Shown piece after piece: positions 3,611-30,986 of a stretch of 30,986 bases of DNA. The notes beneath the pieces are model-generated. The model did no database searches, was not told where the DNA came from, and worked only from the letters and a program-made list of their open reading frames with translations. The stretch is from a virus. Position 1 is the stretch's first letter; each line of letters begins with the position of its first letter. The stretch covers positions 1 to 30,986 of IMG/VR virus record IMGVR_UViG_3300010388_000223; one strand, written 5' to 3'. The translations under genes and the position numbers were made by a program.

Positions 3611-3737
3611 ATGCTTTCAAGTGTTTATATCCGGTGACGATTATTGCGCCTATGAGGAGCAGTGTGAGCCCGTTGAAGCCGGTCAGAATGATTTGTGCTA
3701 CTGCTGCGGTGAATAGTGCCCAGATTATTAAAGCCAT
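3609..3737 (-). CDS. Small membrane protein (42 aa)
   Basis: Hand translation: MALIIWALFTAAVAQIILTGFNGLTLLLIGAIIVTGYKHLKA. Its ATG overlaps the end of the upstream gene. Below the ORF-track size cutoff. Confidence 0.55.
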   Translation of the reverse strand: MALIIWALFTAAVAQIILTGFNGLTLLLIGAIIVTGYKHLKA

Positions 3738-8222: not shown

Positions 8223-8353
8223 ATACGCCGCTAAGGTCTGTGAGGGTTTCTGATGAGATTTGGAAGCCTGCTTTGGCTAAGGCTGAGGCTGAGGGTGTTC
8301 CTTTGACTTCTGTTATTGTGACGGCCCTAATCGAGTTTGTGCACTCAAAATGA
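8219..8353 (+). CDS. Ribbon-helix-helix (CopG/Arc-like) DNA-binding protein (44 aa)
   Basis: Hand translation: MNTPLRSVRVSDEIWKPALAKAEAEGVPLTSVIVTALIEFVHSK (beta strand plus two helices). ATGA overlaps on both sides. Confidence 0.6.
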   Translation: MNTPLRSVRVSDEIWKPALAKAEAEGVPLTSVIVTALIEFVHSK

Positions 8354-13945: not shown

Positions 13946-14191
13946 ATGAGTGAAAGCAATATGCAAAAAATGCAAATTCCTTACACACCTACAACAGAAG
14001 AAGTACGCAACCTGTTCTCTTGGCACAACGATGAGGGGGAGATAGTCGCTAAGGGTGGCTTTGACCGTTGGCTTGCTGAAGTAAAAGCAGACGCTTTCAA
14101 TGAAGGTTATGTGGCTGGGAAAGCTATCGGTCTAAGCGATGGAATGAAACTGATTCAAAACATTCGCCACAGGAGAGAGGAAGCAGAATGA
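13946..14191 (+). CDS. FDRWLAE-motif paralog A
   Basis: SD gagggaag. YTPTTEEVR ... FDRWLAEVKADAF. Confidence 0.75.
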   Translation: MSESNMQKMQIPYTPTTEEVRNLFSWHNDEGEIVAKGGFDRWLAEVKADAFNEGYVAGKAIGLSDGMKLIQNIRHRREEAE

Positions 14192-14520
14192 GTGCTGACC
14201 CACAGACGGGATTGCCATCGCTAAATACTGAACAGCTCAGGTTTCTACACGTTGGAGACTTCCGTGGAACTAAGCGTGAGCAAGAAAAGGTTGCTGAGTT
14301 TGACCGTTGGCTTGCTGAAATAAAAGCCGATGCCTTCGCTCAAGGGCGCGACTCACAACGTGACCATGCTGAACACATGGAGCGTGAACGCATCATCAAG
14401 CTGCTTGAAGGCGCAGAGCGTGAAGCCAATACGGCCAAGCCAATCACCGGAGGCTCATACGGCTACTGGGAAGGTTTGAACAAGGCTATTGCGCTTATCA
14501 AGGGAGAGAACATTGAGTGA
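14188..14520 (+). CDS. FDRWLAE-motif paralog B
   Basis: ATGA coupling. EFDRWLAEIKADAF. Confidence 0.75.
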   Translation: MSADPQTGLPSLNTEQLRFLHVGDFRGTKREQEKVAEFDRWLAEIKADAFAQGRDSQRDHAEHMERERIIKLLEGAEREANTAKPITGGSYGYWEGLNKAIALIKGENIE

Positions 14521-14782
14521 AAGCAATATGCAAAAAATGCAAAATCCTTACACACCTACAACAGAAGAAGTACGCGCCAACTATCTTCCACCTAGGACAG
14601 AAATAGTTGACGCAGACGAGCAGTTTGACCGTTGGCTTGCTGAAGTAAAAGCACAAGCATGGGAAGAAGGGCAAATATCACTACTGAAATATATGGGAGT
14701 TCCCCTTTACCCATCTAAAAGCGATGAACCAAGGAACCCCAAACAGCCACTAAACCCTTACCGACAGGGAGAAGAACAGTGA
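14513..14782 (+). CDS. FDRWLAE-motif paralog C
   Basis: TTG 14513 is homologous to the ATG of paralog A (tTGAGTGAAAGCAATATGCAAAAAATGCAAA...), with SD gggagag. ATG 14528 is an alternative start. Confidence 0.7.
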   Translation: MSESNMQKMQNPYTPTTEEVRANYLPPRTEIVDADEQFDRWLAEVKAQAWEEGQISLLKYMGVPLYPSKSDEPRNPKQPLNPYRQGEEQ

Positions 14783-15003
14783 GTGATTACACGCCTACAA
14801 CAGAAGAAGTACGCGCAGCTTATGGGGGGCAACTTATCAAGATTGGTGAAAATAGGTTTGAGTTTATTGACGAGGGACAAGCCGCGTCTGAGTTTGACCG
14901 TTGGCTTGCTGAAGTAAAAGCCCAAGTCTGGGATGACGCGTGGAAAGAAGGTTCTGAATATCCAAAAGAAAACTTCAACCCTTACAGGCAAGGAGAAAAA
15001 TAA
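14779..15003 (+). CDS. FDRWLAE-motif paralog D
   Basis: GTGA coupling. MSDYTPTTEEVR ... EFDRWLAEVKAQVW ... NPYRQGEK. Confidence 0.7.
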   Translation: MSDYTPTTEEVRAAYGGQLIKIGENRFEFIDEGQAASEFDRWLAEVKAQVWDDAWKEGSEYPKENFNPYRQGEK

Positions 15004-15176
15004 TGCCAACATATGTTTACCAGTGTGACTGTGGCTACAGGGAAGAAGTCACACACTCTATCACTGCTGAAATAGAAATAATCTGCTCTTATTGTGACAA
15101 GCCGTTGCAGCGTAAACCTCAACGATCAAGTGTGCAATTTAAGGGTGACGGCTGGGCAAGCAGGGAAACAAGATAA
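15003..15176 (+). CDS. FmdB-family zinc-ribbon protein (57 aa)
   Basis: Hand translation: MPTYVYQCDCGYREEV...ICSYCDKPL...FKGDGWASRETR. CxC...CxxC. TAATG coupling. Confidence 0.7.
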   Translation: MPTYVYQCDCGYREEVTHSITAEIEIICSYCDKPLQRKPQRSSVQFKGDGWASRETR

Positions 15177-15298
15177 TGTTCACCAAACATAATGCACTGT
15201 TTTGTTGCCCAGAGTTTCAGCAGGCGTATCGCAACGGTACAGATACTCAGCATGAGTGCAGTAAAGAACCTGTCTATGTTGTGGAAGGCGAACAGTGA
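15176..15298 (+). CDS. Small Cys-containing hypothetical protein (40 aa)
   Basis: Hand translation: MFTKHNALFCCPEFQQAYRNGTDTQHECSKEPVYVVEGEQ. Coupled at both ends (TAATG, GTGA). Confidence 0.45.
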   Translation: MFTKHNALFCCPEFQQAYRNGTDTQHECSKEPVYVVEGEQ

Positions 15299-16359
15299 AA
15301 ACCATCACTCTAACACCGTGGCCGATATATCCTGTCATGTCTGGCGGTCAAGAAAGATGCTGGAATCTAGCAAAAGCACTAGATGAATCCACAGTGTTTA
15401 GCTTGGACTGGACTGGTGAAAGCACACACCAACGCATTGAGGGCGTGAACTATAAAACTATTGGTGCTGATCCTGCAGCAATAGCACAAGCCAAACTTCT
15501 TATGCAGTCTGGTGTGAAAACTTTTGACCCTATGCCTATGCTGACTAAGAAGAAACTTGACACTATTAGACGTGAGATAGACAACAGCGACCCAGACCTC
15601 ATCATTTTGGAACATCCGTGGCTGTTAGACCTCACAGACGGCAGACCATATATTTATGACAGTCACAACTGCGAGACTCTAAACACTAGGCAACAGTTCC
15701 CTTACAGCCTAGACGTTGACCTAGTAGCTAACCTAGAACGTAGGGCTACACAGCAGGCAGAACATATGACCTACACTGCTGAAAAAGACCTGAAAGCTAT
15801 GCGCCAACTGTACCCTTTCACTACACCAGTAACGCACATACCTAACGGGGTGACACTGCCTGACACTATCGCTACAGGGGAAGAACTCAACCTCATCTTT
15901 ATCGGATCACTCTATGGCCCTAACATTCAAGCCGCGAAAGAACTCATAGCCCTTGCCCCACTACTAAGGGAATACAAGATACGCATACTAGGCAACGTAT
16001 GTTCAGTACTTGAGTCACGTTATGACAATGTTGAACTGATAGGAGCAGTAAACGATAAACAACTTGATTACTACTTTAGAACTGCTCACGCATTTGTGAA
16101 CCTTACACAGACAGGCTCAGGCACACACCTCAAGATTGGTCGCGCCCTAGCCTACGGCCTACCAGTGATAACAACACCTATCGGCGGCAGAGGATACCAA
16201 ACACCACTCATCAGCAGTATCGCCAACGTACCAGACAACATCAGATCACTACGCCGCAACTGGAAACAACACTCAGAATGGTCACGCAGTGAAGCAGAAC
16301 TAATCACATGGGAAATAGTAGGAGACAAGTTCAGGCAGGTAATCAATGGCCTTCAATAA
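15295..16359 (+). CDS. Glycosyltransferase, GT-B fold (family 1/4-like)
   Basis: LTPWPIYPVMSGGQER at the N-terminus. C-terminal GSGTHLKIGRALAYGLPVITTPIGGRGY. Confidence 0.75.
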   Translation: MKTITLTPWPIYPVMSGGQERCWNLAKALDESTVFSLDWTGESTHQRIEGVNYKTIGADPAAIAQAKLLMQSGVKTFDPMPMLTKKKLDTIRREIDNSDPDLIILEHPWLLDLTDGRPYIYDSHNCETLNTRQQFPYSLDVDLVANLERRATQQAEHMTYTAEKDLKAMRQLYPFTTPVTHIPNGVTLPDTIATGEELNLIFIGSLYGPNIQAAKELIALAPLLREYKIRILGNVCSVLESRYDNVELIGAVNDKQLDYYFRTAHAFVNLTQTGSGTHLKIGRALAYGLPVITTPIGGRGYQTPLISSIANVPDNIRSLRRNWKQHSEWSRSEAELITWEIVGDKFRQVINGLQ

Positions 16360-16678
16360 ACCCTGCATAGTCTGTGGCACACTCAGCCGTGGTACTAGAT
16401 GCGAACAACATCAAACAGAACTCGACCAACGCAAACAGGCCGCGAAAGACAAAGACCCCACACACAAAGCAAAGAAAGCCACCCTATACGGGTACAGATA
16501 CCAGCAGGCCAGACGTATAGTCAAAGCAACAGCAACACAATGCCACATCTGTAAACAACCATTCACACCAACAGACAACATAGACGCAGACCACCTATAC
16601 CCAGGCGACCCCACATCACCACTACTTCCAGCACACAGCAGATGCAACCGTAGCAGAGGCAACAGACAACTAGAATAA
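16346..16678 (+). CDS. HNH endonuclease, packaging-associated (adjacent to terminase)
   Basis: CIVCG...C..H; CHICKQPF...DADHL...HSRCNRSRGN. Position immediately upstream of terS. Confidence 0.8.
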   Translation: MAFNKPCIVCGTLSRGTRCEQHQTELDQRKQAAKDKDPTHKAKKATLYGYRYQQARRIVKATATQCHICKQPFTPTDNIDADHLYPGDPTSPLLPAHSRCNRSRGNRQLE

Positions 16679-16706
16679 CCATTCGAACACATATTCGAAC
16701 ACCACA

Positions 16707-16718
16707 ACATATAGTGGT
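16707..16718 (+). repeat. 12-bp direct repeat acatatagtggt, copy 1 (cos/terminase-recognition candidate)
   Basis: Exact second copy at 16833..16844. Also the tandem attcgaacac at 16681 and 16693. Confidence 0.6.
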
Positions 16719-16724
16719 GCATAG

Positions 16725-16757
16725 CCCCCCACGTCATAGATGGGGGGTATCTTTTTT
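16725..16757 (+). terminator. Rho-independent terminator after the HNH gene
   Basis: cccccca-cgtcataga-tgggggg followed by tatctttttt. Confidence 0.8.
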
Positions 16758-16832
16758 GTGACAAACACGCCACTCCTCACCCCCCAGCCTAGCCTTTTCT
16801 GTATATCCGCAGTTCAGACCCCTCGGGATACT

Positions 16833-16844
16833 ACATATAGTGGT
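16833..16844 (+). repeat. 12-bp direct repeat acatatagtggt, copy 2
   Basis: Exact match to 16707..16718, 36 nt upstream of terS. Confidence 0.6.
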
Positions 16845-16879
16845 AGTCTGGATGTGCGAACCTACGCGAAAGGAATGAG

Positions 16880-17323
16880 ATGCCTAATCCGCCTAAGCCT
16901 GCTGAGTTGAAGTTGTTGCAGGGGAATCCTGGTAAGCGTGGTTTGCGTTTGAATGATGCGGTTGCGCCTATGGAGTATGGGTATGTTGAGCCGCCTGCTG
17001 ATTTGCGTGAGTCTGGATTGGCGTTGTGGCAAAAGATTTTTGGTGCTGGTGAGTTGTGGATTTCTATTCGTACTGATGTTGATTTGGTGACTCAGGTCTG
17101 TAGGCAGATGGATAGGCGTGATGAGTTGTCGCGTAGGTTTTGGGATGAGCCTGAGTCTCGTGTTGTGAATATGAGTTTGTTGGAGACTGAGAAGGCTATT
17201 GTTAATGGTTTGTCGCTGCTTGGCTTTTCGCCTGCTGACCGGACTCGTCTTGGTTTGGTATCAGCTAAAACTAAATCCAAGCTTGAGGAGCTGATGGATC
17301 GTAAGGCTCAGGCTGGTAAATGA
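16880..17323 (+). CDS. terS: Terminase small subunit (P27 family)
   Basis: PKPAELKLLQGNPGKRGL N-terminal signature. Upstream of terL with ATGA coupling. Confidence 0.8.
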   Translation: MPNPPKPAELKLLQGNPGKRGLRLNDAVAPMEYGYVEPPADLRESGLALWQKIFGAGELWISIRTDVDLVTQVCRQMDRRDELSRRFWDEPESRVVNMSLLETEKAIVNGLSLLGFSPADRTRLGLVSAKTKSKLEELMDRKAQAGK

Positions 17324-18974: not shown

Positions 18975-20329
18975 TGTTTGAGCGTTTGTTTGAGACTCGT
19001 GCGGTTTCGTACCAGTCAATTTGGGCATCAGGTGACAGTGTAGACTTTGGTCAACTATCTGGCACTAACATAAATAACGAGACTGTGTTTCAGGTCAATG
19101 CTGTTTACAGCGCGGTTAGTTTAATTGCTGACACTATCTCAACGCTGCCACTTGATGTTTTTGTTCGCCGTGATGGTGCGCGGTTTCCTTTCCGGCCTGC
19201 TCCTGCTTGGGTTCAGAAGCCTGACGTTGATTTACCTAAAGAGGCTTTCTACTCGGCGTTGATTGTTTCCTTGTTGCTGGATGGTAACGCTTTTGTGCGC
19301 GTGTTCAGTAATAAGCAGGGTGAGGTTGTGAACCTTGTTGTGTTGAACCCTCAAACTGTTGAGATTAAACGTAACGGCTTGGGTCGCCTTATCTTTAATG
19401 TTCAGGGTGAGAAGAAGGCTTTGAGCGCTGATGAGGTTATTTATATTCCTGACTTGTTGCGCCCTGGTGCTGTGCGTGGCGTTTCGCGTATCGAGGCATT
19501 GAAGGAAAACTTTGGTCTTGCTTTAGCGTTGGAGAAGTTCGCTGCTACCTTCTTTGGTTCTGGAACTAACTTGGCTGGTGTGATTGAGTTCCCTGGTAAC
19601 TTGACTCAGGAACAAAGCGATCAGTTGCGTAACGGTTTTGATAAGGCTCATGCTGGTTGGCAACGTGGCCACAAGACTGGTGTTCTTTCTGGTGGTGCAA
19701 CGTGGAAATCTACACAGATTGATCCTGATAAGTCTACGTTGGTGGATTCGCGTAATCAGGCTGTTGCTGATGTGGCTCGAGCTTTCAACATTCCTCCACA
19801 TCTGTTGGCTTTGCCTGGCACTAACTCTTATGCATCAGTTGAAGAATCTAACCTTGCTTGGGTTACTCACTCGCTGCGCCCGATTGTGCAAAAGATTGAG
19901 GGCGCTTTAACGCCTTTGATGTTGCGTACTGCTGGTGGCGAAAACGCCTTCCTGAAGTTTAATCTTGATGGTTTGTTGCGTGCCGATATTCAGTCTCGTA
20001 TGAGCGCATATTCGACTGGTTTGCAGTCTGGGTTCTTGACTATCAATGATGTGCGCCGGTTAGAGGATTATCGCCCGATTGACGATATTTCGGCTGATAC
20101 AGTTCGTGTGCCTTTAGCTAACGTGAACATTGATGCTGCTACGCTATCGGCTGAGTCTGAACGGGTGGCTATGGCGCAGAAACTTATCCTTGCAGGGTTT
20201 GACCCTAACGAGACTATGAAGGCTCTAAGCTTGCCTGTGATTCCTCACACTGGCTTGCCTTCTACACAATTGCAGGCGGTTGCTCAGATTGATCCTGAGA
20301 ATCCTGAATCTGTTTATGGGGTGAACTAA
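18974..20329 (+). CDS. Portal protein (HK97 family)
   Basis: 451 aa. Position after terL. Typical portal-family pattern (LLLDGNAF, ...PPHLLALPG...). Confidence 0.85.
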   Translation: MFERLFETRAVSYQSIWASGDSVDFGQLSGTNINNETVFQVNAVYSAVSLIADTISTLPLDVFVRRDGARFPFRPAPAWVQKPDVDLPKEAFYSALIVSLLLDGNAFVRVFSNKQGEVVNLVVLNPQTVEIKRNGLGRLIFNVQGEKKALSADEVIYIPDLLRPGAVRGVSRIEALKENFGLALALEKFAATFFGSGTNLAGVIEFPGNLTQEQSDQLRNGFDKAHAGWQRGHKTGVLSGGATWKSTQIDPDKSTLVDSRNQAVADVARAFNIPPHLLALPGTNSYASVEESNLAWVTHSLRPIVQKIEGALTPLMLRTAGGENAFLKFNLDGLLRADIQSRMSAYSTGLQSGFLTINDVRRLEDYRPIDDISADTVRVPLANVNIDAATLSAESERVAMAQKLILAGFDPNETMKALSLPVIPHTGLPSTQLQAVAQIDPENPESVYGVN

Positions 20330-20685
20330 TGCAGACTCCTGGCGTTCTTGATATGTCTTGCTATCAGGGTGCAAACTTTGATTACACTTTAACGTGGCAG
20401 GCTGGCGGTTCCGCAGTGAACTTGACTGGCTATAGTGCCCGTATGCAGGTTCGTGATTCGTATGATGGCGGTACAGCTATTGTGTCGCTGACTAGCGGTA
20501 CTGGTATTACTCTTGGCGGTACTGCCGGTACTATCATTTTGGAGTTGTCTGCTACCGCTACTGCCGCGCTTGATGGCACACCTAACACACAGTATGTGTA
20601 TGACCTTGAGCTTGTGTCTGGTGCTGGCTATGTTACTCGTCTAGTTGAAGGCCGGTTCTATGTGTTCCCCGAGGTCACAAAGTGA
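20329..20685 (+). CDS. Ig-like / BppU-N-like beta-sandwich protein (virion-associated?)
   Basis: YQGANFDYTLTW...VNLTGYSARMQVR...YVYDLELV...GRFYVFPEVT. TAATG coupling to portal. Confidence 0.5.
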   Translation: MQTPGVLDMSCYQGANFDYTLTWQAGGSAVNLTGYSARMQVRDSYDGGTAIVSLTSGTGITLGGTAGTIILELSATATAALDGTPNTQYVYDLELVSGAGYVTRLVEGRFYVFPEVTK

Positions 20686-21443
20686 CAGATGTTGTCTATA
20701 CGCAGTCAACGGCTATTGTGACCGTTGCTACTCCAGCGAGTGCGACTGTTAATGTTACTGCTGCTGGTACTGCTGTAGTTCGTCAGGAGCAGGCCACGGT
20801 TGTTTCTGATTTGCAACAGGTGCAAACTATTCAGGCTCCTGACTGGATTCAGTTTAATACTTCTGCTGTTGCTACGCCTGGTGTTGGTCGTCTGCATTGG
20901 AATGATACTGATGGCACGTTTGAGTTCCAGATGAAGGGTGGTCAGGTTACTCAACAGATTGGCATGGAGCAGGTTCTTAGGGTTTCCGCTAACGATAATG
21001 GTGGACTTATTGAGGGTAAAGTTATTTATGCTGTTGGGTCTGATGGCGTGAATTTGAAGGTGGCTTACGCTACTGCTACCAGTGAGACTACTTCTTCTAA
21101 GACTCTTGCCGTTATGACTGAGACTGTAACTGCCGCTAATAAAGGGTTTGCTACAACATTTGGTTTAGTTCGTGGTTTGAACACTAGTGGTATGACTGAG
21201 GGCGCGGCTGTGTGGCTGTCACCTACCGGTTCAGGAAACATGACCACTACTCGGCCTACTACTCCTAATCATGCAGTGTTTATTGGTTACTGTTTGCGTG
21301 CTAGTTCTAATAATGGTGTTGTGTTTGTGAACATCCAGAATGGTTATGAGCTGGATGAGTTACATAACGTAAAGATTACTAACCCACAGGATGGGCAAGT
21401 TTTGAAGTATCAGGCAAACACTGGATTGTGGGTGAACGGCTAA
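20682..21443 (+). CDS. Fibre-like protein in the head module
   Basis: GRLHWNDTDGTFEFQMKGG...QIGMEQ...GKVIYAVGSDG...AVWLSPTGSGNMTTTRP...LDELHNVKITNPQDGQVLKYQANTGLWVNG resembles tail/head-fibre proteins. Confidence 0.5.
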   Translation: MTDVVYTQSTAIVTVATPASATVNVTAAGTAVVRQEQATVVSDLQQVQTIQAPDWIQFNTSAVATPGVGRLHWNDTDGTFEFQMKGGQVTQQIGMEQVLRVSANDNGGLIEGKVIYAVGSDGVNLKVAYATATSETTSSKTLAVMTETVTAANKGFATTFGLVRGLNTSGMTEGAAVWLSPTGSGNMTTTRPTTPNHAVFIGYCLRASSNNGVVFVNIQNGYELDELHNVKITNPQDGQVLKYQANTGLWVNG

Positions 21444-22615
21444 TGCCATATTTTATTCAACAGGGTAACGCTGACTGTAAAAGTGGTTGGGCTGTTATTG
21501 ATGCTGATGGTGCAGTATATGGATGCCATCAAACTAAAAAGGATGCTATTGATCAGGCGGTTGCTGTATCGCTTGCTACTGATGAACCGTTTGAGGGTGA
21601 GCGTACCCTAAATATAGGAGATAATAGAAATATGGATATTCGCGCTACTGCTGAAGAATTAACGCCTGGTGTCTGGATTCAATGGATTCAAGAAGATGAA
21701 ATTGAGTATGGGCAGGTTATTCAGGTTGATGGTGATATGGTTCAAGTTACGCCGTGGGATGAAGAGGATGGTGAGTGGTCTGCTGAGTCTGAGATTCAGC
21801 TTGTTGAGATTGCTCGTGTTCAGGTGATTCCTGCTTTGCCTGCTCCTGAGATGGAAGAGGATAAGCCTGTCAATTCTTTGGCTGGTATGCGTAGTGTGGG
21901 TAAGTTTGAGACTCGTGTTCAGGCTACCGATTTTGAGGTTCGTGAAACTCCTAACGGTATGGTGTTTGAGGGTTACGCTTCAGTGTTCAATAGCCGTTCT
22001 GAAAACTTGGGCGGTTTTACTGAGTTTGTTGCTCCTGGTGCTTTCACTCGCTCGTTGAAGTCTCGTAATGATGTGAAGCTTTTGTGGAACCATGATGCCG
22101 GTCAAGTGTTGGGTTCTACTCGTGCTAAGTCTATGACTTTGACTGAGGATGCTCGTGGTTTGAAGGTTACTGCTACGCTGCCGAACACACAGCTGGGAAG
22201 AGACACAGCAGAGCTCATCAGAACAAAAATTATTGACTCCATGTCTTTTGGATTCAATGTCATTAAGGATTCTTGGAACAGTGAAGGCACTGAGCGCACC
22301 CTGCATTCGGTACGTCTTTTCGAGGTCAGCATTGTGGCCTTCCCTGCCTATTCCTCAACTGCTGGAACTACAACGGTGCGATCATTGGAGAAGTTGGCTA
22401 AGCGTGCTGAGGTTGACATGACTGACCTTGAGGCTGCACTTACCAAGCTTGAGTCTGGCGATGATTTAGATGAGGCTTCTCGTGACCTGCTGAATTCGGT
22501 TATCAATAAGGTTTCGCCTTCTGTGACTTTTGATAATGAGCCTGCTGATAGTGTGGTTGGCGATTTGGGCTTGCTTGCTTTGAAGAAGAAGAAGCTGGAA
22601 CTGTTTGAGCTATAA
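21443..22615 (+). CDS. Prohead protease (HK97/S78 family) with ~170-aa N-terminal extension and C-terminal scaffold-like tail
   Basis: FEGYASVFNSRSENLGGFTEFVAPGAFTRSL...VKLLWNHD...EDARGLKV...DSMSFGF. TAATG coupling. Confidence 0.8.
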   Translation: MPYFIQQGNADCKSGWAVIDADGAVYGCHQTKKDAIDQAVAVSLATDEPFEGERTLNIGDNRNMDIRATAEELTPGVWIQWIQEDEIEYGQVIQVDGDMVQVTPWDEEDGEWSAESEIQLVEIARVQVIPALPAPEMEEDKPVNSLAGMRSVGKFETRVQATDFEVRETPNGMVFEGYASVFNSRSENLGGFTEFVAPGAFTRSLKSRNDVKLLWNHDAGQVLGSTRAKSMTLTEDARGLKVTATLPNTQLGRDTAELIRTKIIDSMSFGFNVIKDSWNSEGTERTLHSVRLFEVSIVAFPAYSSTAGTTTVRSLEKLAKRAEVDMTDLEAALTKLESGDDLDEASRDLLNSVINKVSPSVTFDNEPADSVVGDLGLLALKKKKLELFEL

Positions 22616-22649
22616 TAGTTAAACCCCTCAACTGTTTTGCCGGTTGACT

Positions 22650-22688
22650 TATCCCCTAGTGTTACTGCTCGCTAGGGGATATTCTTTT
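22650..22688 (+). terminator. Terminator-like hairpin after the protease gene
   Basis: tatcccctag-12 nt-ctaggggata followed by ttctttt. Confidence 0.65.
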
Positions 22689-22740
22689 CACGGCTAGTTG
22701 CGGTAAAGTAGAAATACCGCAGGTGGTGTGGTTAGGATTA

Positions 22741-22770
22741 GGTCAGCTTTCAAGCTGGCCTTTTCTGTTT
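22741..22770 (+). terminator. Second terminator-like hairpin in the MCP leader region
   Basis: ggtcagc-tttcaa-gctggcc (one G-T pair) followed by ttttctgttt. Confidence 0.5.
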
Positions 22771-22790
22771 GCGCGACTTTTATTGTATAT

Positions 22791-22800
22791 GCGGTATACT
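22791..22800 (+). promoter_or_regulatory. gcGGTATACT -10-like box upstream of the major capsid gene
   Basis: Variant of the GCGGTAGAAT late motif, 90 nt upstream of ATG 22891. Confidence 0.45.
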
Positions 22801-22890
22801 AAAACTGGTTGAGTGTTAGCACCGCCGTAAATGTTCCGTGAACTTGCGTGTAATCACCAGTTCGCAACCTTACCTTATTGGAGATTAAAG

Positions 22891-24012
22891 ATGAGTGAGT
22901 TCATCAAGTCTCAGCAGGAAGTACGCGCAAACCTTATTGCTCAGGTTCGTGAAATCATTGATTTTGCTGAATCCGAGAAGCGTGGACTGCTCGCTGAGGA
23001 AACCCAGAAAATTGAGCGCATTGAAGCAGACATCCGTTCCGCTGACGATGCTCTCGCAATTGCTACTCGTAACGAGGAGCGCAAGGCTGAGGCTGCTACC
23101 GCTGCCGCTGGTTTTGTTCCTGCTGTAGAAGCACGTTCTGACGCTGACATCTTCCGCGCAATGGCTCGTGGAGAAGTTCGTGGCCACAACTTTGAACAGC
23201 GTGCAACTCTCGTTCCTGCGACTGCAACTGTTCCTGTATCGTTCCTTGACCGTGTATACGGTGTTGCTCGCCTCGTTGGGCCTATGCTTGACGTTGCTGA
23301 GGTTATCACTCGTAGCTCTGGTAACGACCTGCGTATTCCTGTTTACACTGCTTTCAGCACTGCTGCACAGGTTGCTGCTGGTTCTGCAATTGCTGAATCT
23401 AACCCAACCTTTGACAGCATTCTTCTTCAGCCAAAGAAAGAAGCCTTCATTGTTCCAGTTGCTAACGAACTGATTACTGACGCTGGTTTCGACATTGAGG
23501 CTGTTATTGCTGAGCAGGCTGGTAACGCTATCGGTTACGCTGTAAACGGTACTGCTACCGCTAAGCTGGTTGCTGCTGCTGGTTCTGGCGTTACCGCTTC
23601 TACCGCAACTGCTATCTCTGCTGACAACCTGATTGACCTCGCCTACTCGCTTGATGGTGCTGCTCGCCGTCTGCCAGGTGTTGGTTACATGGCTAACGGT
23701 TCCACCATTGGTGCTATCCGTAAGCTGAAGGACACTGCAGGAAACTACCTTTACCAGGTAGGCGTTGGTCAGCCTGACACCTTTGCTGGTTTCGCTGTTT
23801 ACGAGAACCCTGCTCTTGACAGTGTTGCTACTGGCAAGAAGGCTGTTCTGTTCGGTGACTACCGTTCTGTCAAGATTGCTACAACTGGTCTTGATGTTGC
23901 TGTTTCGTCTGACGCATACTTTGCTAACGACGTTACTGGTTACCGTTTCACCTACCGTGTTGACTCTGGTCTAACCCACAGCTCACACGTTAAGTACCTG
24001 CTCCAGCCATAA
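22891..24012 (+). CDS. Major capsid protein (HK97 fold) with N-terminal delta/scaffolding domain
   Basis: SD ggag + ATG 22891. Coiled-coil N-terminus (QQEVRANLIAQVREIIDFAESEKR...). Position after the protease. Distinct C-ending codon preference. Confidence 0.85.
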   Translation: MSEFIKSQQEVRANLIAQVREIIDFAESEKRGLLAEETQKIERIEADIRSADDALAIATRNEERKAEAATAAAGFVPAVEARSDADIFRAMARGEVRGHNFEQRATLVPATATVPVSFLDRVYGVARLVGPMLDVAEVITRSSGNDLRIPVYTAFSTAAQVAAGSAIAESNPTFDSILLQPKKEAFIVPVANELITDAGFDIEAVIAEQAGNAIGYAVNGTATAKLVAAAGSGVTASTATAISADNLIDLAYSLDGAARRLPGVGYMANGSTIGAIRKLKDTAGNYLYQVGVGQPDTFAGFAVYENPALDSVATGKKAVLFGDYRSVKIATTGLDVAVSSDAYFANDVTGYRFTYRVDSGLTHSSHVKYLLQP

Positions 24013-24028
24013 GCTGAGTAGCTAGATT

Positions 24029-24068
24029 CATCCCCTGTCTTGTAGGTTAGGCAGGGGATGTTCTAGTT
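24029..24068 (+). terminator. Terminator-like hairpin after the MCP gene
   Basis: catcccctg-14 nt-caggggatg then ttctagtt. A second 9-bp hairpin taatcccct...aggggatta lies at 24075-24113. Confidence 0.6.
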
Positions 24069-24150
24069 AAACGGTAATCCCCTCAAGACAACCACAATGC
24101 CTTAAGGGGATTAGATAGTTGGGGGAACTATCGTGACTAATCTAATACAG

Positions 24151-24163
24151 GTTATAGAATAGA
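24151..24163 (+). promoter_or_regulatory. gttaTAGAATaga -10-like box upstream of the glycosyltransferase pair
   Basis: TAGAAT at 24155-24160, 26 nt upstream of ATG 24187. Confidence 0.4.
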
Positions 24164-24186
24164 GTCAACCTATTTTTGAAAGGGAA

Positions 24187-25374
24187 ATGATGGCTGTAGA
24201 GAAATTGCGCGGTGTCGTATCTGTTGCTTCTAACTCGTATGATTCGCCTACTGGCTATGGGGTGCAGGTGAAGCTTTTGATTGACCGTATGGTTAAGCAT
24301 GGTTTGAAGGTTGCTAACCTGTCTAATTATGGGCTTGAGGGTCGTATTGATGAGATTAAGACTCCTCACGGGAAGATTCCTCATTATCCTCGTGGATTCA
24401 AGCCTTACAGTGATGATGTCATTCCGGTGTGGCATGAGGATCATAAGTCGCATAATCCTGATGTGAAAGATGCTGTAATTACTCTTTATGATCAGTGGGT
24501 TTACAATGACCTAAAGTTTGATGGTGACATTATTGCCTGGACTCCACTAGATCACGTCACGTTGCCACCTAACGTGCTCAAGTTTCTTTTACGCCCTAAT
24601 GTTCACCCTGTGACTATGTCACCGCATGGGCAACGTCAGTTAGAGCGTGCCGGTGTGGATAGTGTGTATATTCCTCACGCGATTGATACGAGTGTGATGA
24701 AGCCTACTGATGATTTTGTGGGTGTGCCGATTCGCCAATATTTGGATGTTCCTGATGATGCGTTTCTGGTGTCTATGGTTGCAGCTAATAAGGCTAATGG
24801 TTTGGTGCATCGTAAGGCGCTTGCTGAGCAGTTGATGGCTTTCAGTATTTTCCGGCAAGAGTATCCTGACGCTTATCTTTATATTCATAGTGAGCCTAGC
24901 CCTGTGTTTGGTGGGTTTAATATTCCAGCCTTGTTGAGGGCGTGTGGCTTGTCTGATGAGTATGTGCGTATTTTGAATAGTGACGTGAACCGTACTGGAT
25001 ATCCTGACGAGTTTTTGGCGGCAGTGTATACGGGTTCTGACGTTATGTTGCAGGTGTCGTATGGTGAAGGTTTTGGTGTGCCTGTGATTGAGGCTCAGGC
25101 GTGTGGCACTCGTGTTATCACCTCTAATTGGGCGGCGACTCAAGACTTGGCTGGTGATGATTCTTTCTTGGTTGATGGGCAACCGTTCTGGGATGAACCT
25201 CAACAGTCGTTCTACAACATTCCTAACATTGGTTCTATCGTGAACGCGCTAAAACTTGCTTATGCTGCTCCTCGTGGAATCAGTCAGGCTTCTATAGAGT
25301 TTGCTAAACAGTTTGAGGTTGATCGTGTGTGGAACTGGTATTGGATGCCCTATTTGCGTGAGTTCTTCAAATGA
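24187..25374 (+). CDS. Glycosyltransferase, GT-B fold (family 1/4-like)
   Basis: YGEGFGVPVIEAQACGTRVITSNWAATQDL (E-X7-E region). SD aaggga. Confidence 0.75.
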   Translation: MMAVEKLRGVVSVASNSYDSPTGYGVQVKLLIDRMVKHGLKVANLSNYGLEGRIDEIKTPHGKIPHYPRGFKPYSDDVIPVWHEDHKSHNPDVKDAVITLYDQWVYNDLKFDGDIIAWTPLDHVTLPPNVLKFLLRPNVHPVTMSPHGQRQLERAGVDSVYIPHAIDTSVMKPTDDFVGVPIRQYLDVPDDAFLVSMVAANKANGLVHRKALAEQLMAFSIFRQEYPDAYLYIHSEPSPVFGGFNIPALLRACGLSDEYVRILNSDVNRTGYPDEFLAAVYTGSDVMLQVSYGEGFGVPVIEAQACGTRVITSNWAATQDLAGDDSFLVDGQPFWDEPQQSFYNIPNIGSIVNALKLAYAAPRGISQASIEFAKQFEVDRVWNWYWMPYLREFFK

Positions 25375-26018
25375 TTCCTAACCTTATTGTTCCTACGCTG
25401 AATCAGTATGAGAAGCTTCAGCGTATGGTTTATGGCATTGACTATCCTGTTGAACATCTGCTCATTATTGATAACGGTGGCAGGCTTGCTGATTTGCGTA
25501 TTCCTGATGCGGTGCAGAAACTTACTATCCTAAATATGCCTTCTAATTTGGGTGTGTCTACGTCATGGAATCTGGGTATCAAATCGTTTCCTCATGCTGA
25601 CCGCTGGTTTGTTGCTTCTGATGACATCATGTTTGAGCCTGGTGCTCTTGAGGATTGGTTTAATATTTCGCATAGGGAACGCCTGATTACTTCTAGCGAG
25701 TCACCGTATTGGCAGTTTTTTTGTATTGGTGAAGAAGTTGTTGGCAACGTGGGCTTGTTTGATGAGGCTATTCATCCAGCTAATTTTGAGGATGATGAGT
25801 ATGAGTGGCGTTGTGAACAGTTAGGGTATGAAGTTCACAGGGCAGACATAGGGCACTTTCATGAGAAACATTCCACTGTGTTTAGCCCTGAGTATGTTTC
25901 TAAGAATCGTGGGAGTTATGTTTTGAATGAGTCTTATTTTGAGACTAAGAAGCGTGAGCGTGATTATAGTGATGGGTTTTGGACTTTATCGCGTAGACGC
26001 ATTTTGAGCTGGGATTAG
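25371..26018 (+). CDS. Glycosyltransferase, GT-A fold (family 2-like)
   Basis: LIVPTLNQYEKL, LLIIDNGG, NLGVSTSWNLGI, FVASDDIMFEPGAL (DxD). ATGA coupling. Confidence 0.7.
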   Translation: MIPNLIVPTLNQYEKLQRMVYGIDYPVEHLLIIDNGGRLADLRIPDAVQKLTILNMPSNLGVSTSWNLGIKSFPHADRWFVASDDIMFEPGALEDWFNISHRERLITSSESPYWQFFCIGEEVVGNVGLFDEAIHPANFEDDEYEWRCEQLGYEVHRADIGHFHEKHSTVFSPEYVSKNRGSYVLNESYFETKKRERDYSDGFWTLSRRRILSWD

Positions 26019-26029
26019 CGGTACAATAG
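26018..26029 (+). promoter_or_regulatory. Late-gene cassette motif gcGGTACAATagg followed by TTAGGAGTTTATT-TTG
   Basis: Aligns over ~37 nt with the 302-339 cassette. Confidence 0.5.
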
Positions 26030-26051
26030 GTATAGGATTTAGGAGTTTATT

Positions 26052-26660
26052 TTGGCTATTACTAACGGCTATGCCACTCTCGCTGATGTGAAGGCTGCTT
26101 TGCGGATCACTGATTCTGTTGATGATGCGCTGATTGAGATTGCTATTGAGTCTGCTTCTCGTGAAATTGACGGGTACTGTAACCGCGTGTTCTATTCGAC
26201 TAGCGGAACTAGGGTTTATCAGCCTCAAGATGCGTTTGTTTGTCAGACTGATGACATTGTTTCTGTTACTACTCTTAAGACTTCTGACAATGCTCAAAGC
26301 TATGACAATACTTGGGCTGTTACTGATTTTCAGCTTGAGCCGTTGAATGGTGTATCTGGTGGTTTGGTTCAGCCTGCTACTCGTATTCGTGCTGTAGGTG
26401 ATTACCTGTTTCCTATTTGGACTATCGGTTCAACATATAACAATTTTGCGCCGGTTCAGATTGTGGGTGTGTTTGGTTGGTCGAGTGTTCCTACTGCGGT
26501 AAAGCAGGCGGCACTCTTGTTGGCTATGCGCCAGTTTAAGCGTTACGATTCCCCACTGGGTGTGGCAGGCTTTGGCGATTTGGGTGCTATCCGTGTTGGC
26601 CGTGTTGATCCTGATGTTCAGGCTTTGCTTGACCCGTTCCGTAAGGCTGTAGCCTCGTGA
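26052..26660 (+). CDS. Head-tail connector/adaptor (phage gp6-like)
   Basis: TTG start after aggag. YATLADVKAALRITDSVDDALIEIAIESASREIDGYCNR is the classic gp6-like N-terminus. Confidence 0.75.
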   Translation: MAITNGYATLADVKAALRITDSVDDALIEIAIESASREIDGYCNRVFYSTSGTRVYQPQDAFVCQTDDIVSVTTLKTSDNAQSYDNTWAVTDFQLEPLNGVSGGLVQPATRIRAVGDYLFPIWTIGSTYNNFAPVQIVGVFGWSSVPTAVKQAALLLAMRQFKRYDSPLGVAGFGDLGAIRVGRVDPDVQALLDPFRKAVAS

Positions 26661-27058
26661 GCATTGCTGACATCCGCAACGGCTTAGGTGCTAATCTGGG
26701 CACGATTCGTGGCTTGCGTGTAGCTGAGACTATTCCCGATAATCCTAGTCCGCCTATCGCTGTTATAGCGTTGGGAAATGTGGTTTATGATGGCGCATTT
26801 CATGGTGGCCTTGTAACCTACAATTTTACTGTGTCTGTGATTGTGGGGCGTGTTGCTGAGCGTGAGGCTCAACGCCGTCTGGATGCTTTCATTTCTACAG
26901 GTACGGGTTCTATTAAGGGTGCTATAGAGTCTGAGAAGTCTCTTGGTGGTTCAGCGTATGATGTGCGCGTGTCTGAGATGACTAATGTGGGTGCGGTGCA
27001 GATTGGTGATGCAACGTATTTGGCGTGTGATTTCGCTGTTGCGGTTTATGCTAACTAG
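26657..27058 (+). CDS. Head-tail joining / neck or tail-terminator-like protein
   Basis: GTGA coupling. 133 aa between connector and major tail. Function from position only. Confidence 0.5.
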   Translation: MSIADIRNGLGANLGTIRGLRVAETIPDNPSPPIAVIALGNVVYDGAFHGGLVTYNFTVSVIVGRVAEREAQRRLDAFISTGTGSIKGAIESEKSLGGSAYDVRVSEMTNVGAVQIGDATYLACDFAVAVYAN

Positions 27059-27113: not shown

Positions 27114-27530
27114 ATGATTGTGGCTAAGTTTGTTGCTACTGACGTAAAGACAACCATTAACGGTACGGACTTTAGTGATCACATTGCTGCTGTCACTTTT
27201 GACCTGACTGCTGATGAGATTGAGACAACTGCTTTCGGTACTGCGTGGCGTCAACGTGTTGGCGGCGGTCTGAAAGATGCTTCTATCTCGATTGACTTCC
27301 ACCAAGATTTTGGTGCAGGTTCGGTTGATGCTGTTCTGTTCCCTCTGTTTGGTTCTATCGCTACTGTAGTGTGTGTGCCAACTAGCGGTTCTGTATCGGC
27401 AACTAACCCTTCTTACACTGGAACTTTCTCAGTGACCGCATATAGCCCTGTTGCTTCTAACGTGGGTGACCTTGCAACCCTGTCAGTATCTTGGCCTTCT
27501 GCTGGTACTGTAACTCGAGGAACTGTTTAA
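27114..27530 (+). CDS. Major tail (tube) protein
   Basis: 138 aa, directly upstream of the frameshifted chaperone pair. The true start may be GTG 27120 (better SD spacing). Confidence 0.7.
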   Translation: MIVAKFVATDVKTTINGTDFSDHIAAVTFDLTADEIETTAFGTAWRQRVGGGLKDASISIDFHQDFGAGSVDAVLFPLFGSIATVVCVPTSGSVSATNPSYTGTFSVTAYSPVASNVGDLATLSVSWPSAGTVTRGTV

Positions 27531-30010: not shown

Positions 30011-30986
30011 ATGGGAACTTTAACAACAGTAGAAATCGGCGTATACCTTAACACTGCCAACGCGCCTTATTTTCGACTCAATGACCCTGTTAAAGGAAAA
30101 TTAAATAACACTAGCTATCGTCTTGCTGGGCCTATCTTTTATGACGTTACTGATCGTGTTACTGCTGTTTCTGTTAAGCGTGGTAAGAACCGTCAACTGG
30201 AACGCTACAATGCTGGGCAGGCTACTGTTGTTTTAAACAATGAAGATAGATTGTTTGACCCGTTGAATACGGCTTCTATTTTTTATGGCAACATTATTCC
30301 GCGCCGCCAAATTCGTATCAATTCTGGTGGGTATAACCAGTTTGTTGGTTTGATTGAGGACTGGAATTATGATTATGACGTTTCTGGTAAGTCTACTGCT
30401 CAAATAGTTTCGGCTGATGGTTTTACTTTGTTGGCTCAACAGTCTTTGACTGCTGGCACTGCGACTGCTCAAACTACTGGTGCGCGTATTAATGCGGTGT
30501 TGTCTATGCCTTCTGTGGCGTGGCCTCTTGAGGATAGAAATGTTGATACTGGGCTTGCGGCGTTGGGTGCTGATGTTTGGTCTGCCACAGATAATGCTTT
30601 AACGTATTTGCAGGAAGTTGAGGCTTCTGAGCAGGGTCAGTTCTTTATTGACCGTGATGGATATGCTAGGTTTGTGAATGGTGGCGTTACTCCTACTAGT
30701 GGTTTGTCTGCTGTGTTGTTTAGTGATGCTGGTGATGGTGTGCCTTATACGGGTGCTCAGGTTTCTTATGGTACTGAACTTTTGTTTAATACTGTTTCTG
30801 TAACTTATCCGGCTGGTACTGCTACTGCCGCTAATGTGGCTTCTCGTAATCTTTACGGTATTACTACTACGAGTGTTGATACTTTGTTGCAGACTTCTAC
30901 TGCTGCTGAGAATCTGGCTTTGTTTTGGGTGAATAAGTATGGTGATCCTGAGTATCGTTTTGATGCGGTGACTGTTGCTCTTGAGG
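30011..30986 (+). CDS. Distal tail (Dit-like) minor tail protein, N-terminal part; continues at 1..300
   Basis: ATG 30011 right after the tape measure gene. Open to the window end. MGTLTTVEIGVYLNT...VSVKRGKNRQLERYNAGQATVVLNNEDRLFDP is typical of actinophage Dit-type proteins. Confidence 0.8.
   Translation, partial: MGTLTTVEIGVYLNTANAPYFRLNDPVKGKLNNTSYRLAGPIFYDVTDRVTAVSVKRGKNRQLERYNAGQATVVLNNEDRLFDPLNTASIFYGNIIPRRQIRINSGGYNQFVGLIEDWNYDYDVSGKSTAQIVSADGFTLLAQQSLTAGTATAQTTGARINAVLSMPSVAWPLEDRNVDTGLAALGADVWSATDNALTYLQEVEASEQGQFFIDRDGYARFVNGGVTPTSGLSAVLFSDAGDGVPYTGAQVSYGTELLFNTVSVTYPAGTATAANVASRNLYGITTTSVDTLLQTSTAAENLALFWVNKYGDPEYRFDAVTVALE
30932..30986. repeat. Second copy of the 55-bp terminal overlap
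   Basis: Exact identity with nt 1-55. Confidence 0.95.

Follow-up and report, generated by a model that had tools for sequence, protein, structure and literature searches.

A glycosyltransferase cassette between the capsid and connector genes of a small aquatic actinophage and its possible role in virion glycosylation

Genes and signals at the locus

The window, by which we mean the whole stretch of 30,986 nucleotides analysed here, is a complete circular siphovirus assembly of 30.9 kb with a 55-bp terminal repeat. Its source is a small phage of aquatic actinobacteria. The closest isolate-derived genome is that of Pontimonas phage phiPsal1 (MG835450; 31,069 bp), with a GC content of 53% versus 45% for the window. 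A glycosyltransferase (GT) pair sits between the gene for an HK97-type major capsid protein (MCP) and that for a gp6-type head-tail connector; these genes, together with the third GT gene, the HNH and major tail protein genes, the hairpins and the promoter-like site described below, lie on the plus strand. An earlier, sequence-only reading of this DNA had reported the pair, and both ORFs, their enzyme classes, their translational coupling and their position are borne out.

The MCP gene (22891–24012; PF05065, 7e-41; phrog_10) encodes an HK97-fold protein whose nearest solved structure is the RcGTA capsid (6tb9). Its start is most likely the ATG at 22891, not the mechanical ORF start at 22831, because a GGAG lies 8 nt upstream and the alignment of relatives begins there. 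On the other side of the pair lie the gp6-like connector gene (26052–26660; PF05135, 5.5e-10; phrog_442, 6e-24) and, further downstream, the gene for the major tail protein (27114–27530; phrog_4574).

The first gene of the pair (24187–25374) encodes a 395-aa enzyme, predicted to be soluble, that matches Pfam families Glycos_transf_1 (PF00534; 4e-9, 36.6 bits, cut-off 26.4) and Glyco_trans_1_4 (PF13692; 7e-10, 39.8 bits, cut-off 27) as well as the glycosyltransferase PHROG 2170 (5e-37). Its EX7E motif, formed by E294 and E302 within EGFGVPVIEAQACG, has both glutamates invariant in 34 homologs. The AlphaFold model (pLDDT 85.9) shows the two Rossmann domains of a GT-B fold, and the top 50 Foldseek matches are all GT-B, mostly GT4, with TM-scores of 0.6–0.7; B736L of chlorovirus NY-2A (3oy2) comes first, then MshA, BshA and WaaG, and 6kih is also among them. 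These resemblances suggest a CAZy GT4-type enzyme, which by its family would transfer sugar from a nucleotide-sugar donor with retention. Close relatives of this GT-B are practically confined to phage-sized contigs: a scan of 185,579 species genomes matched 3 MAG contigs. That scan used two exact peptide patterns, so absence from cellular genomes means that close relatives are missing there, not GT4 relatives in general.

The second gene (25371–26018; 215 aa) overlaps the first by an ATGA at 25371–25374, read directly, in which the GT-A start overlaps the GT-B stop. Its product matched nothing in Pfam at E <= 0.01, and a precomputed PF00535 match is on record for about 40% of its close homologs. 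It matches PHROG 29879, annotated 'galactosyl transferase' (7e-42), and Foldseek assigns its AlphaFold model (pLDDT 91.9) to the GT-A fold. Matches in the PDB include AvpGT, PcManGT, TarP, WrtF and ppGalNAc-T2 (E about 1e-8, TM 0.5–0.6), and those in BFVD are 'Glycosyltransferase 2-like' phage proteins with TM-scores up to 0.92. The protein contains IIDNGG and the DXD-type motif S83-D84-D85, in which S83 and D85 are invariant among homologs and some have N in place of D84; F139-E140-D141-D142 make up a second acidic cluster. The most fitting description is that of a divergent GT2-like protein. Among the structural neighbours of the two enzymes, those working on small molecules, lipids, teichoic acid or polysaccharides are as frequent as those working on proteins, an observation that speaks against a virion acceptor.

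A third GT gene (15295–16359) encodes a GT4-like GT-B enzyme (Glyco_trans_1_4, 1e-11; Glyco_transf_4, 3.5e-7). It overlaps by 14 nt, and is coupled to, an HNH endonuclease gene (16346–16678; PHROG/Pfam scans), a packaging partner directly upstream of TerS, and the gene order around HNH is the same in one relative (L165). Homologs of the third GT, with 35–38% identity, lie between GT-B and GT-A in three relatives (L057, L063 and L074) and directly 3' of GT-B in three others (L079, L130 and L132), where no GT-A match was found before the connector or the contig end. The third enzyme probably works together with the pair. Three GTs had been described as a large investment for a 31-kb genome; the genes are there, and their measured share is 2,901 of 30,931 unique bases (9.4%). 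TM-like segments were found in none of the GTs, and an NCBIfam search with them returned generic GT matches only, all far below threshold and pointing to no particular donor or acceptor.

Hairpins lie on both sides of the capsid gene. One with the stem ATCCCCT/AGGGGAT (22650–22681; fold z = -6.65) was found by a terminator-like scan in the interval from the stop of the protease gene to the start of the MCP gene. At the MCP 3' end, a terminator- or attenuator-like hairpin with the loop TTGTAGGTT and a T-rich tail (24029–24060) was identified by scanning, folding and conservation, with compensatory changes in all 12 pairs and the loop TAGGT invariant across 29 sequences. It is followed by a second hairpin (24075–24113; pattern search and folding) whose stem is again ATCCCCT/AGGGGAT; this pattern, ATCCCCT-N-AGGGGAT, was found 3 times versus 0 expected. 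Rfam holds no family matching the hairpins. Beyond them, a promoter-like site (24133–24160; GTGACT-16 nt-TAGAAT; 9/12 matches in a scan) ends 27 nt before the GT-B start codon (ATGATG, 24187–24192). The promoter-scan count in the region is not above that of shuffles, so the TAGAAT box rests on its conservation in near relatives rather than on the scan: it recurs at the same spot in 7 of them, and it precedes the connector gene in 8 of 9 cassette-less relatives. The sequence-only reading took these elements for MCP terminator hairpins and a TAGAAT box belonging to the pair. They are all present, but the hairpin at 24029–24060 is a family-wide element of the MCP gene that also occurs in GT-less relatives.

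A variable slot between the capsid and connector genes

Megablast of positions 22000–27000 against 50,697 phage records gave zero matches, so relatives are detectable at the protein level only. Our comparison set comprises about 160 related viral contigs, and the order protease, MCP, cassette, connector, terminator, tail tube is maintained throughout the GT-anchored and connector-anchored loci. The MCP–connector gap, with the connector gene as its downstream border, is a recombination hot spot with accessory content that varies between phages. Nine relatives have no gene there; occupied gaps show many different combinations of genes for GT-B, GT-A, a homolog of the third GT, methyltransferases, a cytidylyltransferase and enzymes of nucleotide-sugar chemistry. 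Other slot genes encode GT2, GT17-like and TOD1-like transferases, RmlD-like and PseB/CapD-like enzymes, epimerases and a UDP-Glc dehydrogenase-like protein. The cytidylyltransferase, present in 32 loci, is TagD-like, which also fits teichoic-acid-type chemistry and is a point against a virion protein as acceptor. A synteny search had been suggested as a check on the earlier reading, and its outcome is strong: GT-B lies directly 3' of the MCP gene in all of the roughly 80 GT-anchored loci with both genes on the contig, and again directly after it in most connector-anchored relatives. In Microcystis phage Mae-JY09, a homolog lies between the MCP and adaptor genes.

Isolated phages show the same arrangement. 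The gene order of phiPsal1 follows that of the window genome-wide, and its slot (gp010–gp012) reads MCP, GT group 1 (51% identity), SAM methyltransferase, GT2 (44% identity), neck; it differs by an extra methyltransferase gene on the opposite strand and by having no third GT. This phage was described as lytic and later lost, and these genes were left undiscussed in that report (PMC6106888). Synechococcus phage S-CBS4 carries a contiguous GT-B/GT-A/SAM methyltransferase trio (gp014–gp016) in its head module. Its GT-B is homologous to that of the window (hhalign probability 98%, E 3e-13) and its GT-A is 27% identical (E 6e-9), although the host is cyanobacterial, the genome measures 69 kb and the trio lies between portal and protease instead of MCP and connector. 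In mycobacteriophage Corndog, the validated modification genes gp35–38 also lie between portal and protease (PMC4351075). The module thus stays with the head genes though its exact site differs between the window, S-CBS4 and Corndog.

Gaps behind strong terminators are classic moron insertion sites, and the position of the pair could reflect no more than a tolerant site of this kind, the GTs acting on a small molecule, on a protein of the host or on a phage protein that is not part of the virion. The slot being empty in 9 relatives indicates that it tolerates gain and loss, and the GT4 neighbours of GT-B include the small-molecule enzymes MshA, BshA and sucrose-phosphate synthase. Such an acceptor nevertheless seems decidedly improbable to us, since the independent insertion points in S-CBS4 and Corndog likewise fall within head modules and the recognised slot genes across the roughly 160 loci are all carbohydrate-related, not a random moron mix.

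Surface-polysaccharide loci, too, are typically hypervariable in gene content. The GTs could modify glycopolymers of the host envelope, such as wall polysaccharide or teichoic-acid-like polymers, or the lipid-linked precursors of these, and so mask the receptor, either against superinfection or against loss of progeny on debris. TarP (PDB 6h21 and others), a phage-borne soluble GT-A enzyme, is encoded on temperate phages, expressed from the prophage and alters host surface antigenicity. It ranks among the best structural matches of the window GT-A, whose model also resembles other polysaccharide GT-A enzymes, while GT-B resembles GT4 enzymes of the WaaG, MshA and BshA type; many relatives add the TagD-like protein and sugar-nucleotide enzymes typical of surface-polysaccharide loci. 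An envelope role has been proposed in the aquatic actinophage literature, alongside DNA protection (PMC10202952). Several features of the locus nonetheless make this role unlikely. An integrase (among the window ORFs screened against PHROGs and Pfam) and a membrane partner (among its annotated ORFs), the first expected of a Gtr/TarP-type system and the second common in such systems, were not found, and phiPsal1 was described as lytic; with no integrase and a lytic isolate, a wall change made from a late operon could take effect only briefly. The likeness to TarP itself reaches TM-scores of only about 0.5, and the window GT-A gene lies in what we take to be the late structural operon. The cassette is fixed in the head-tail module in hundreds of relatives, as in S-CBS4 and Corndog, and not in an early or moron position; membrane segments are missing from the GTs, as are flippase or polymerase partners from the cassette loci; and the near absence of the GT-B family from cellular genomes is unlike recently captured host wall genes.

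Candidate acceptor sites

Among GT-B-bearing phages, 131 MCP columns are conserved, and just 4 of these separate GT-B-bearing from GT-B-lacking phages. Three of the four are Ser/Thr positions kept only with GT-B: T177, S252 and T334 (ORF numbering from 22831). The P value for this co-variation is 0.0037, uncorrected for phylogeny, and the GT-B-lacking set consists of 9 sequences from about 3 lineages. T177 (codon 23359–23361) is T in 95% of GT-B-bearing relatives and A or S in 8 of the 9 GT-B-lacking ones; by alignment to RcGTA, it would lie in the E-loop. S252 (codon 23584–23586) is S or T in 56 of 58 distinct GT-B-bearing MCPs (S alone in 93%) and in 0 of 9 GT-B-lacking ones, which here represent at least 3 lineages. 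T334 (codon 23830–23832) is T in 88% versus 1 of 9. All three are candidate O-glycosylation sites, and LVAAAGSGVTASTATAISADNLIDLAYSLDGAAR is an example of an MCP peptide over candidate sites. The tail tube offers a weaker candidate, S95 of the major tail protein (codon 27396–27398), which is S or T in 54 of 60 GT-bearing relatives and G in 8 of 8 GT-lacking ones; the association is weakened by 5 GT-bearing relatives that also have G. A cassette-linked C-terminal extension or feature of the MCP or the tail tube was looked for among the relatives, and none was seen.

This capsid Ser/Thr co-variation points to the MCP as a glycosylation target, and it is left unexplained by an envelope acceptor and by a small-molecule, host-protein or non-structural acceptor alike. 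The proposal that the phage decorates its own virion gains from the comparison as far as the MCP is concerned. As a general account it fails for the fibre/Ig-like proteins at 20329–21443, which had been named as possible targets: they do not travel with the cassette, and since 29 of 40 GT-bearing relatives lack them, we rejected them as the target common to the group.

We consider the chances about even that the GT pair serves virion protein glycosylation, in a system analogous, and not homologous, to that of Che8 and Corndog. The GT-B/GT-A pair, probably with the third GT4 enzyme, would form a phage-borne protein-glycosylation module, the pair sharing a transcript with the neck and tail genes 3' of the attenuating hairpin that closes the capsid gene. 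In the cytoplasm, late in infection, the soluble GTs would draw on host nucleotide-sugars and assemble a short O-linked glycan on exposed Ser/Thr residues of virion proteins. The MCP, at T177, S252 and T334, would be the prime acceptor and the tail tube a possible second one. Were virion proteins glycosylated in this way, progeny particles would leave the cell sugar-coated, and relatives that swap transferases, methyltransferases and sugar-nucleotide enzymes in the slot would diversify that coat. What the data show are the folds and motifs of the enzymes, the order of the genes, the variability of the slot, the lack of a route to hydroxymethylated DNA and the Ser/Thr co-variation; late expression we infer from gene order, and we further infer that the acceptor is a protein, which sites it offers and that a coat is of benefit.

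Comparison with known systems and implications

To our knowledge, particle glycosylation by phage-encoded enzymes has been demonstrated in only a few mycobacteriophages, and phages at large reportedly show little sign of it. Three later papers that summarise the work on Che8, Corndog and Myrna state that GTs encoded by these phages attach glycans to their capsid and tail-tube subunits (Freeman et al. 2023, Cell Host Microbe 31:1216, via PMC11256854, PMC12619734, PMC12363180). The likeness to the window is one of organisation. Che8 and Corndog, like the phage of the window, are siphoviruses of Actinobacteria with several phage GTs, and a methyltransferase appears in the window's relatives. The Corndog GT genes lie inside the head-morphogenesis module, as the window pair lies within structural genes. 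Che8 gp108–110 immediately precede an HNH gene close to the right-hand terminus of the linear record, where HNH and genome end would mark the packaging junction of cos-type phages, and the third GT of the window, which abuts HNH-TerS, is similarly placed. GT genes are thus found within or next to structural and packaging genes in the window too. The outcome proposed for the window, O-glycans on capsid and tail-tube subunits, would also be the same.

The enzymes themselves are different. Homology to the validated enzymes, Che8 gp108–110 and Corndog gp35–38, was considered and rejected: hhalign of the window profiles against Che8 gp108, gp109 and gp110 and Corndog gp37 and gp38 gave probabilities of 0.06–9%, and the family assignments differ. 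Che8 and Corndog use GT2, GT2-like (Che8 gp109, Corndog gp37) and GT25-like (Che8 gp110, Corndog gp38) GT-A enzymes plus a TylF-type O-methyltransferase, whereas the window has a GT4 GT-B, a divergent GT-A and a second GT4. No mycobacteriophage was found by tblastn with the window GTs. The mycobacteriophage glycans are O-linked at the C-termini of capsid and tail-tube subunits, whereas the window candidates are internal Ser/Thr residues, with no C-terminal acceptor feature; its setting is aquatic, without antibody pressure, and its insertion site is that between MCP and connector. The mycobacteriophage precedent invoked by the sequence-only reading holds as an analogy for capsid and tail-tube glycosylation and does not extend to the enzymes. 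Chloroviruses offer another possible parallel, as they glycosylate their major capsid protein with virus-encoded cytoplasmic GTs. B736L of NY-2A is the best match of GT-B both in sequence (E 8e-6) and in structure (Foldseek E 1e-14, TM 0.65), but it comes from a eukaryotic giant virus and shares 17% identity, a likeness at the level of the GT4 fold.

Glycosylation of phage DNA against host nucleases is a common textbook role of phage GTs, exemplified by the T4 alpha/beta-glucosyltransferases and TET-associated GTs, and it is one of the two roles proposed for Planktophila phage GTs (PMC10202952). The window does invest in other DNA modification, with a Mom-family protein at 6994–7635 (a GNAT was also found in the PHROG/Pfam scans of window ORFs), and one relative (L170) encodes a TAGT-family protein (PF20691) in the slot that precedes TerS. 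We give this role very little credence for the window. The T4 enzymes and TAGT, likewise phage-encoded, need hydroxymethylated bases and belong to other GT families than the GT4 and GT2-like ones matched here. PHROG/Pfam scans of the ORFs of the complete 30.9-kb genome revealed neither a dCMP/dUMP hydroxymethylase or thymidylate-synthase-like enzyme nor a TET/JBP dioxygenase or hydroxymethyl-base kinase, so no base hydroxyl would be available to accept a sugar; the earlier argument against DNA glucosylation, which had cited the lack of a base hydroxymethylase, is upheld. A search of the whole genome for DNA-hypermodification partners yielded none but Mom. Finally, the GT genes lie in the structural operon and not beside replication genes.

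To return to virion protein glycosylation, our comparison suggests that this role is filled by an unrelated set of enzymes in a group of actinophages very common in fresh water and the sea, with a variability of the cassette comparable to that of a bacterial O-antigen locus. We propose tentatively, leaning slightly to the side of doubt, that in aquatic actinophages of ~30 kb, and in some cyanosiphoviruses, the slot is a hypervariable island of virion glycan serotypes, which would place a strain-specific coat on T177, S252 and T334. If so, an abundant and globally distributed lineage would carry a glycan island, and phage particle glycosylation would be a widespread environmental trait rather than a mycobacteriophage curiosity tied to immune evasion. 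The annotation of aquatic-phage GTs, now read as DNA protection or superinfection exclusion (PMC10202952), would change, and the locus would supply acceptor sites open to test as well as a compact toolkit of three enzymes for capsid decoration. The selective agent behind a sugar coat away from animal hosts would then become a question in its own right, with diversifying selection exerted by something that is not antibodies, for instance lectins or enzymes at the host surface, grazers or the stickiness of particles.

The three glycosyltransferases and their genome

The sequence-only reading had described a coupled glycosyltransferase pair between the capsid and connector genes and a third transferase elsewhere, and our analysis confirms these observations. 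GT-B (24187–25374, 395 aa) scores above the Pfam cut-offs of both Glycos_transf_1 and Glyco_trans_1_4, matches PHROG 2170 at 5e-37 and carries an EX7E motif inside EGFGVPVIEAQACG, both glutamates of which are invariant in 34 homologs. Its AlphaFold model (pLDDT 85.9) has a GT-B fold, with the B736L transferase of chlorovirus NY-2A as top neighbour in both structure and sequence, followed in structure by GT4 enzymes, including MshA, BshA, WaaG and sucrose-phosphate synthase. GT-A (25371–26018, 215 aa) has no Pfam match of its own; it matches PHROG 29879 at 7e-42, its model (pLDDT 91.9) has a GT-A fold, and the quoted IIDNGG and SDD motifs are conserved in its homologs. The proposed translational-coupling site is an ATGA overlap, and start and stop abut in relatives wherever both genes adjoin. 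The third transferase (15295–16359) is GT4-like by Pfam and shares a 14-nt overlap with an HNH gene. Despite + strand coding, as in the remaining genome, the region 14000–17000 (small ORFs, third transferase, HNH) changes to negative GC skew and positive AT skew (third transferase –0.12 and +0.21; HNH –0.29 and +0.53); this block may have come from another source.

A 55-bp direct repeat at the window ends (1–55 and 30932–30986) implies a complete, circularly assembled genome, with 30,931 bp of unique sequence in the 30,986 bases and a GC content of 45.3%. All convincing genes lie on the + strand. A minor-tail/fibre ORF across the circle junction (30023–30986 plus 4–297, + strand) is homologous to the putative tail fibre of the Pontimonas phage phiPsal1, and the tail-fibre-like protein at 337–1236 ends in a Peptidase_S74 intramolecular chaperone domain (PF13884, 2e-7), which is characteristic of fibre or spike proteins that cleave themselves. 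From the junction-spanning fibre, the order is CHAP endolysin, a strong hairpin (3563–3614), RusA, RecE/YqaJ exonuclease, a WhiB-like gene, a Mom-family protein, GNAT, replication initiator, DnaB, exonuclease, the GT4-like transferase, HNH, TerS, TerL, portal, two small proteins, S78 prohead protease, HK97 major capsid protein (MCP), GT-B, GT-A, gp6-like connector, tail terminator, major tail protein and tape measure. The closest isolate-derived genome, phiPsal1 (31,069 bp), has the same order, with 44–68% protein identity over the structural module. This relationship, together with the WhiB homolog (6734–6994, + strand; 36% identical to phiPsal1 WhiB, E 2e-12), points to an aquatic actinobacterial host; whiB has been taken as an actinophage marker (PMC10202952).

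The aquatic actinophage literature assigns such transferases to DNA protection or superinfection exclusion (PMC10202952). DNA as the acceptor is highly improbable here, because the ORFs of this complete genome include no enzyme for a hydroxymethylated base, as the sequence-only reading had argued, and because the transferase families differ from those acting on DNA. The early region encodes a Mom-family DNA-modification protein (6994–7635, + strand; PF25680 1.7e-41, phrog_1384 5e-53) and a GNAT acetyltransferase (8350–8964, + strand), and the phage DNA may be modified by a Mom-type route without sugars.

The slot between capsid and connector genes

A search of the metagenome protein set returned 2,488 GT-B homologs at E ≤ 1e-3. 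The top 120 share 63–98% identity with GT-B, and many lie on contigs of 28–35 kb, as long as a complete genome. Relatives of GT-B are encoded at 199 IMG/VR loci, and relatives of the connector at 587 or more. Mapping of nine proteins of the window, together with the methyltransferase of phiPsal1, onto ~160 related loci revealed a constant backbone of protease, MCP, slot, connector, terminator and tail tube, in which slot content varies; transferase genes between MCP and connector, for which a synteny search had been suggested, recur over these loci. In the connector-anchored sample, the slot holds GT-B and GT-A at 23 loci, GT-B without GT-A at 8 (several with 2–3 kb of other genes), GT-A only at 4, both plus a SAM methyltransferase at 3, GT-B with a homolog of the third transferase at 1, and nothing at 9, where the MCP–connector gap is 93–125 nt.

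Unassigned slot ORFs were clustered and the cluster representatives scanned against Pfam. They include a cytidylyltransferase (32 loci), a further GT2 enzyme, GT17-like and TOD1/MUCI70-like transferases, an RmlD-like reductase, a Polysacc_synt_2 4,6-dehydratase (1e-94), NAD-epimerase/dehydratases, a UDP-glucose-dehydrogenase-like protein, methyltransferases and a weak, sub-threshold match to an MptE/Maf-like family. Across the ~160 loci, all slot genes with an assignable function are carbohydrate-related. Given this content, variable or absent on a constant backbone, the gap is a dispensable, hypervariable island of predicted glycan biosynthesis. The third transferase also precedes HNH–TerS in near relatives, and its 35–38%-identical homologs occur in the slot, either between GT-B and GT-A (L057, L063, L074) or straight after GT-B (L079, L130, L132), which would tie it to the same pathway. 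On a related NCBI MAG contig (L170:1–725, JBMFGG010000468.1), a PF20691 TAGT (TET-associated glycosyltransferase) family protein lies upstream of TerS, in the place of the third transferase and HNH.

Capsid gene borders and transcription signals

The mechanical MCP ORF starts at 22831; the true start is probably 22891, since relatives align from M21 and GGAG lies 8 nt before that ATG. The hairpins and TAGAAT box around the MCP gene are where the sequence-only reading placed them. The GC-rich hairpin directly 3' of the MCP stop (24029–24060) is family-wide and persists in empty-slot relatives; it is part of the MCP gene, with the cassette downstream. Across MCP 3' flanks (L003–L160), its stems vary yet pair, with compensatory changes at all 12 pairs. 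The loop TTGTAGGTT is conserved, TAGGT being invariant in 29 aligned sequences that were selected by the loop motif, and GTAGG occurs in 58 of 97 distinct flanks. The hairpin matched no Rfam family. The loop conservation suggests a role beyond that of a simple terminator, perhaps as a site where proteins bind or the transcript is processed. A stem ATCCCCT...AGGGGAT is common to three hairpins around the MCP gene (22650–22681, 24029–24060 and 24075–24113; 3 matches versus 0 expected from shuffles), which may stabilise or delimit its transcript.

The TAGAAT box after the MCP hairpin is found in near relatives and in 8/9 empty-slot relatives. Most other relatives have a 65–75-nt spacer and a TAnnnT-like box 6–7 nt before the ATG of the post-MCP gene, GT-B or connector (e.g. 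L049, L053, L142), a spacing that suggests to us leaderless actinobacterial mRNAs. The window's own GT-B leader is 27 nt long, with the ribosome-binding site AAAGGGAA. A promoter scan of the region scored no better than shuffles. We infer that the transferase genes head a neck/tail transcription unit, made at a lower level than MCP.

Candidate acceptors and known systems

Decoration of the virion, as first proposed, is plausible, and we give virion proteins an even chance of being the target. Synteny, exclusion of the DNA route and capsid co-variation lend this reading some additional strength. Among 67 distinct aligned MCPs, 9 from phages lacking GT-B, 131 columns are conserved in GT-B-bearing phages and 4 of these separate the two groups. 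Three of the four are Ser/Thr kept only with GT-B: T177, S252 and T334, numbered from 22831 (T157, S232 and T314 from 22891). Of the 131 conserved columns, 14 are Ser/Thr (P = 0.0037 for three of four, ignoring kinship). The GT-B-lacking MCPs fall into three or more lineages, and their closest relatives with GT-B (68–74% identical) have the Ser/Thr. As the statistics ignore kinship, this co-variation is a lead to the acceptor, not proof. Alignment to the RcGTA capsid would place T177 in the presumed E-loop, where it is probably exposed. Tail-tube S95 shows a weaker association with the cassette. Among relatives, MCP and tail-tube C-termini do not track the cassette, nor does the presence of the fibre/Ig-like proteins (20329–21443) that had been named as possible targets.

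The host envelope is an unlikely acceptor. It is compatible with the fold, the structural neighbours including TarP, WaaG and MshA-like enzymes, but no integrase turned up among the ORFs screened against PHROGs and Pfam, the genes lie within the structural operon, and they have neither membrane partners nor TM-like segments. Close GT-B relatives are, moreover, very rare among 185,579 species genomes, in which a scan with two exact peptide patterns found 3 MAG contigs only, two labelled Microbacteriaceae or Actinomycetota. An acceptor other than virion, envelope or DNA is quite improbable.

Virion glycosylation has precedent in the mycobacteriophages Che8, Corndog and Myrna, where, according to Freeman et al. 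2023 as relayed in PMC11256854, PMC12619734 and PMC12363180, phage-encoded transferases place glycans on capsid and tail-tube subunits, at C-termini, with Che8 gp110 and Corndog gp38 essential for attachment. The Che8/Corndog enzymes are GT25-like and GT2-like GT-A, with a TylF-type O-methyltransferase. Our locus may work in a similar way but falls outside that system, since the window's profiles matched none of Che8 gp108–gp110 and Corndog gp37 and gp38. The cyanosiphovirus S-CBS4 carries homologs of GT-B (hhalign 98%, E 3e-13) and GT-A (E 6e-9) in a trio with a SAM methyltransferase between portal and protease, and the Microcystis phage Mae-JY09 has a GT-B homolog between MCP and adaptor. 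In Corndog, an O-methyltransferase and transferases occupy the portal–protease interval, and Che8 has transferases directly before its right-end HNH gene, the place of our third transferase. These placements indicate that the tie of transferase genes to head/packaging genes outlasts shifts in exact insertion point. Full-text literature searches returned no paper proposing virion glycosylation for aquatic actinophages of this group. Systems of this kind are known, and what is new lies in the set of enzymes, the group of hosts, the place of insertion and the hypervariable island.
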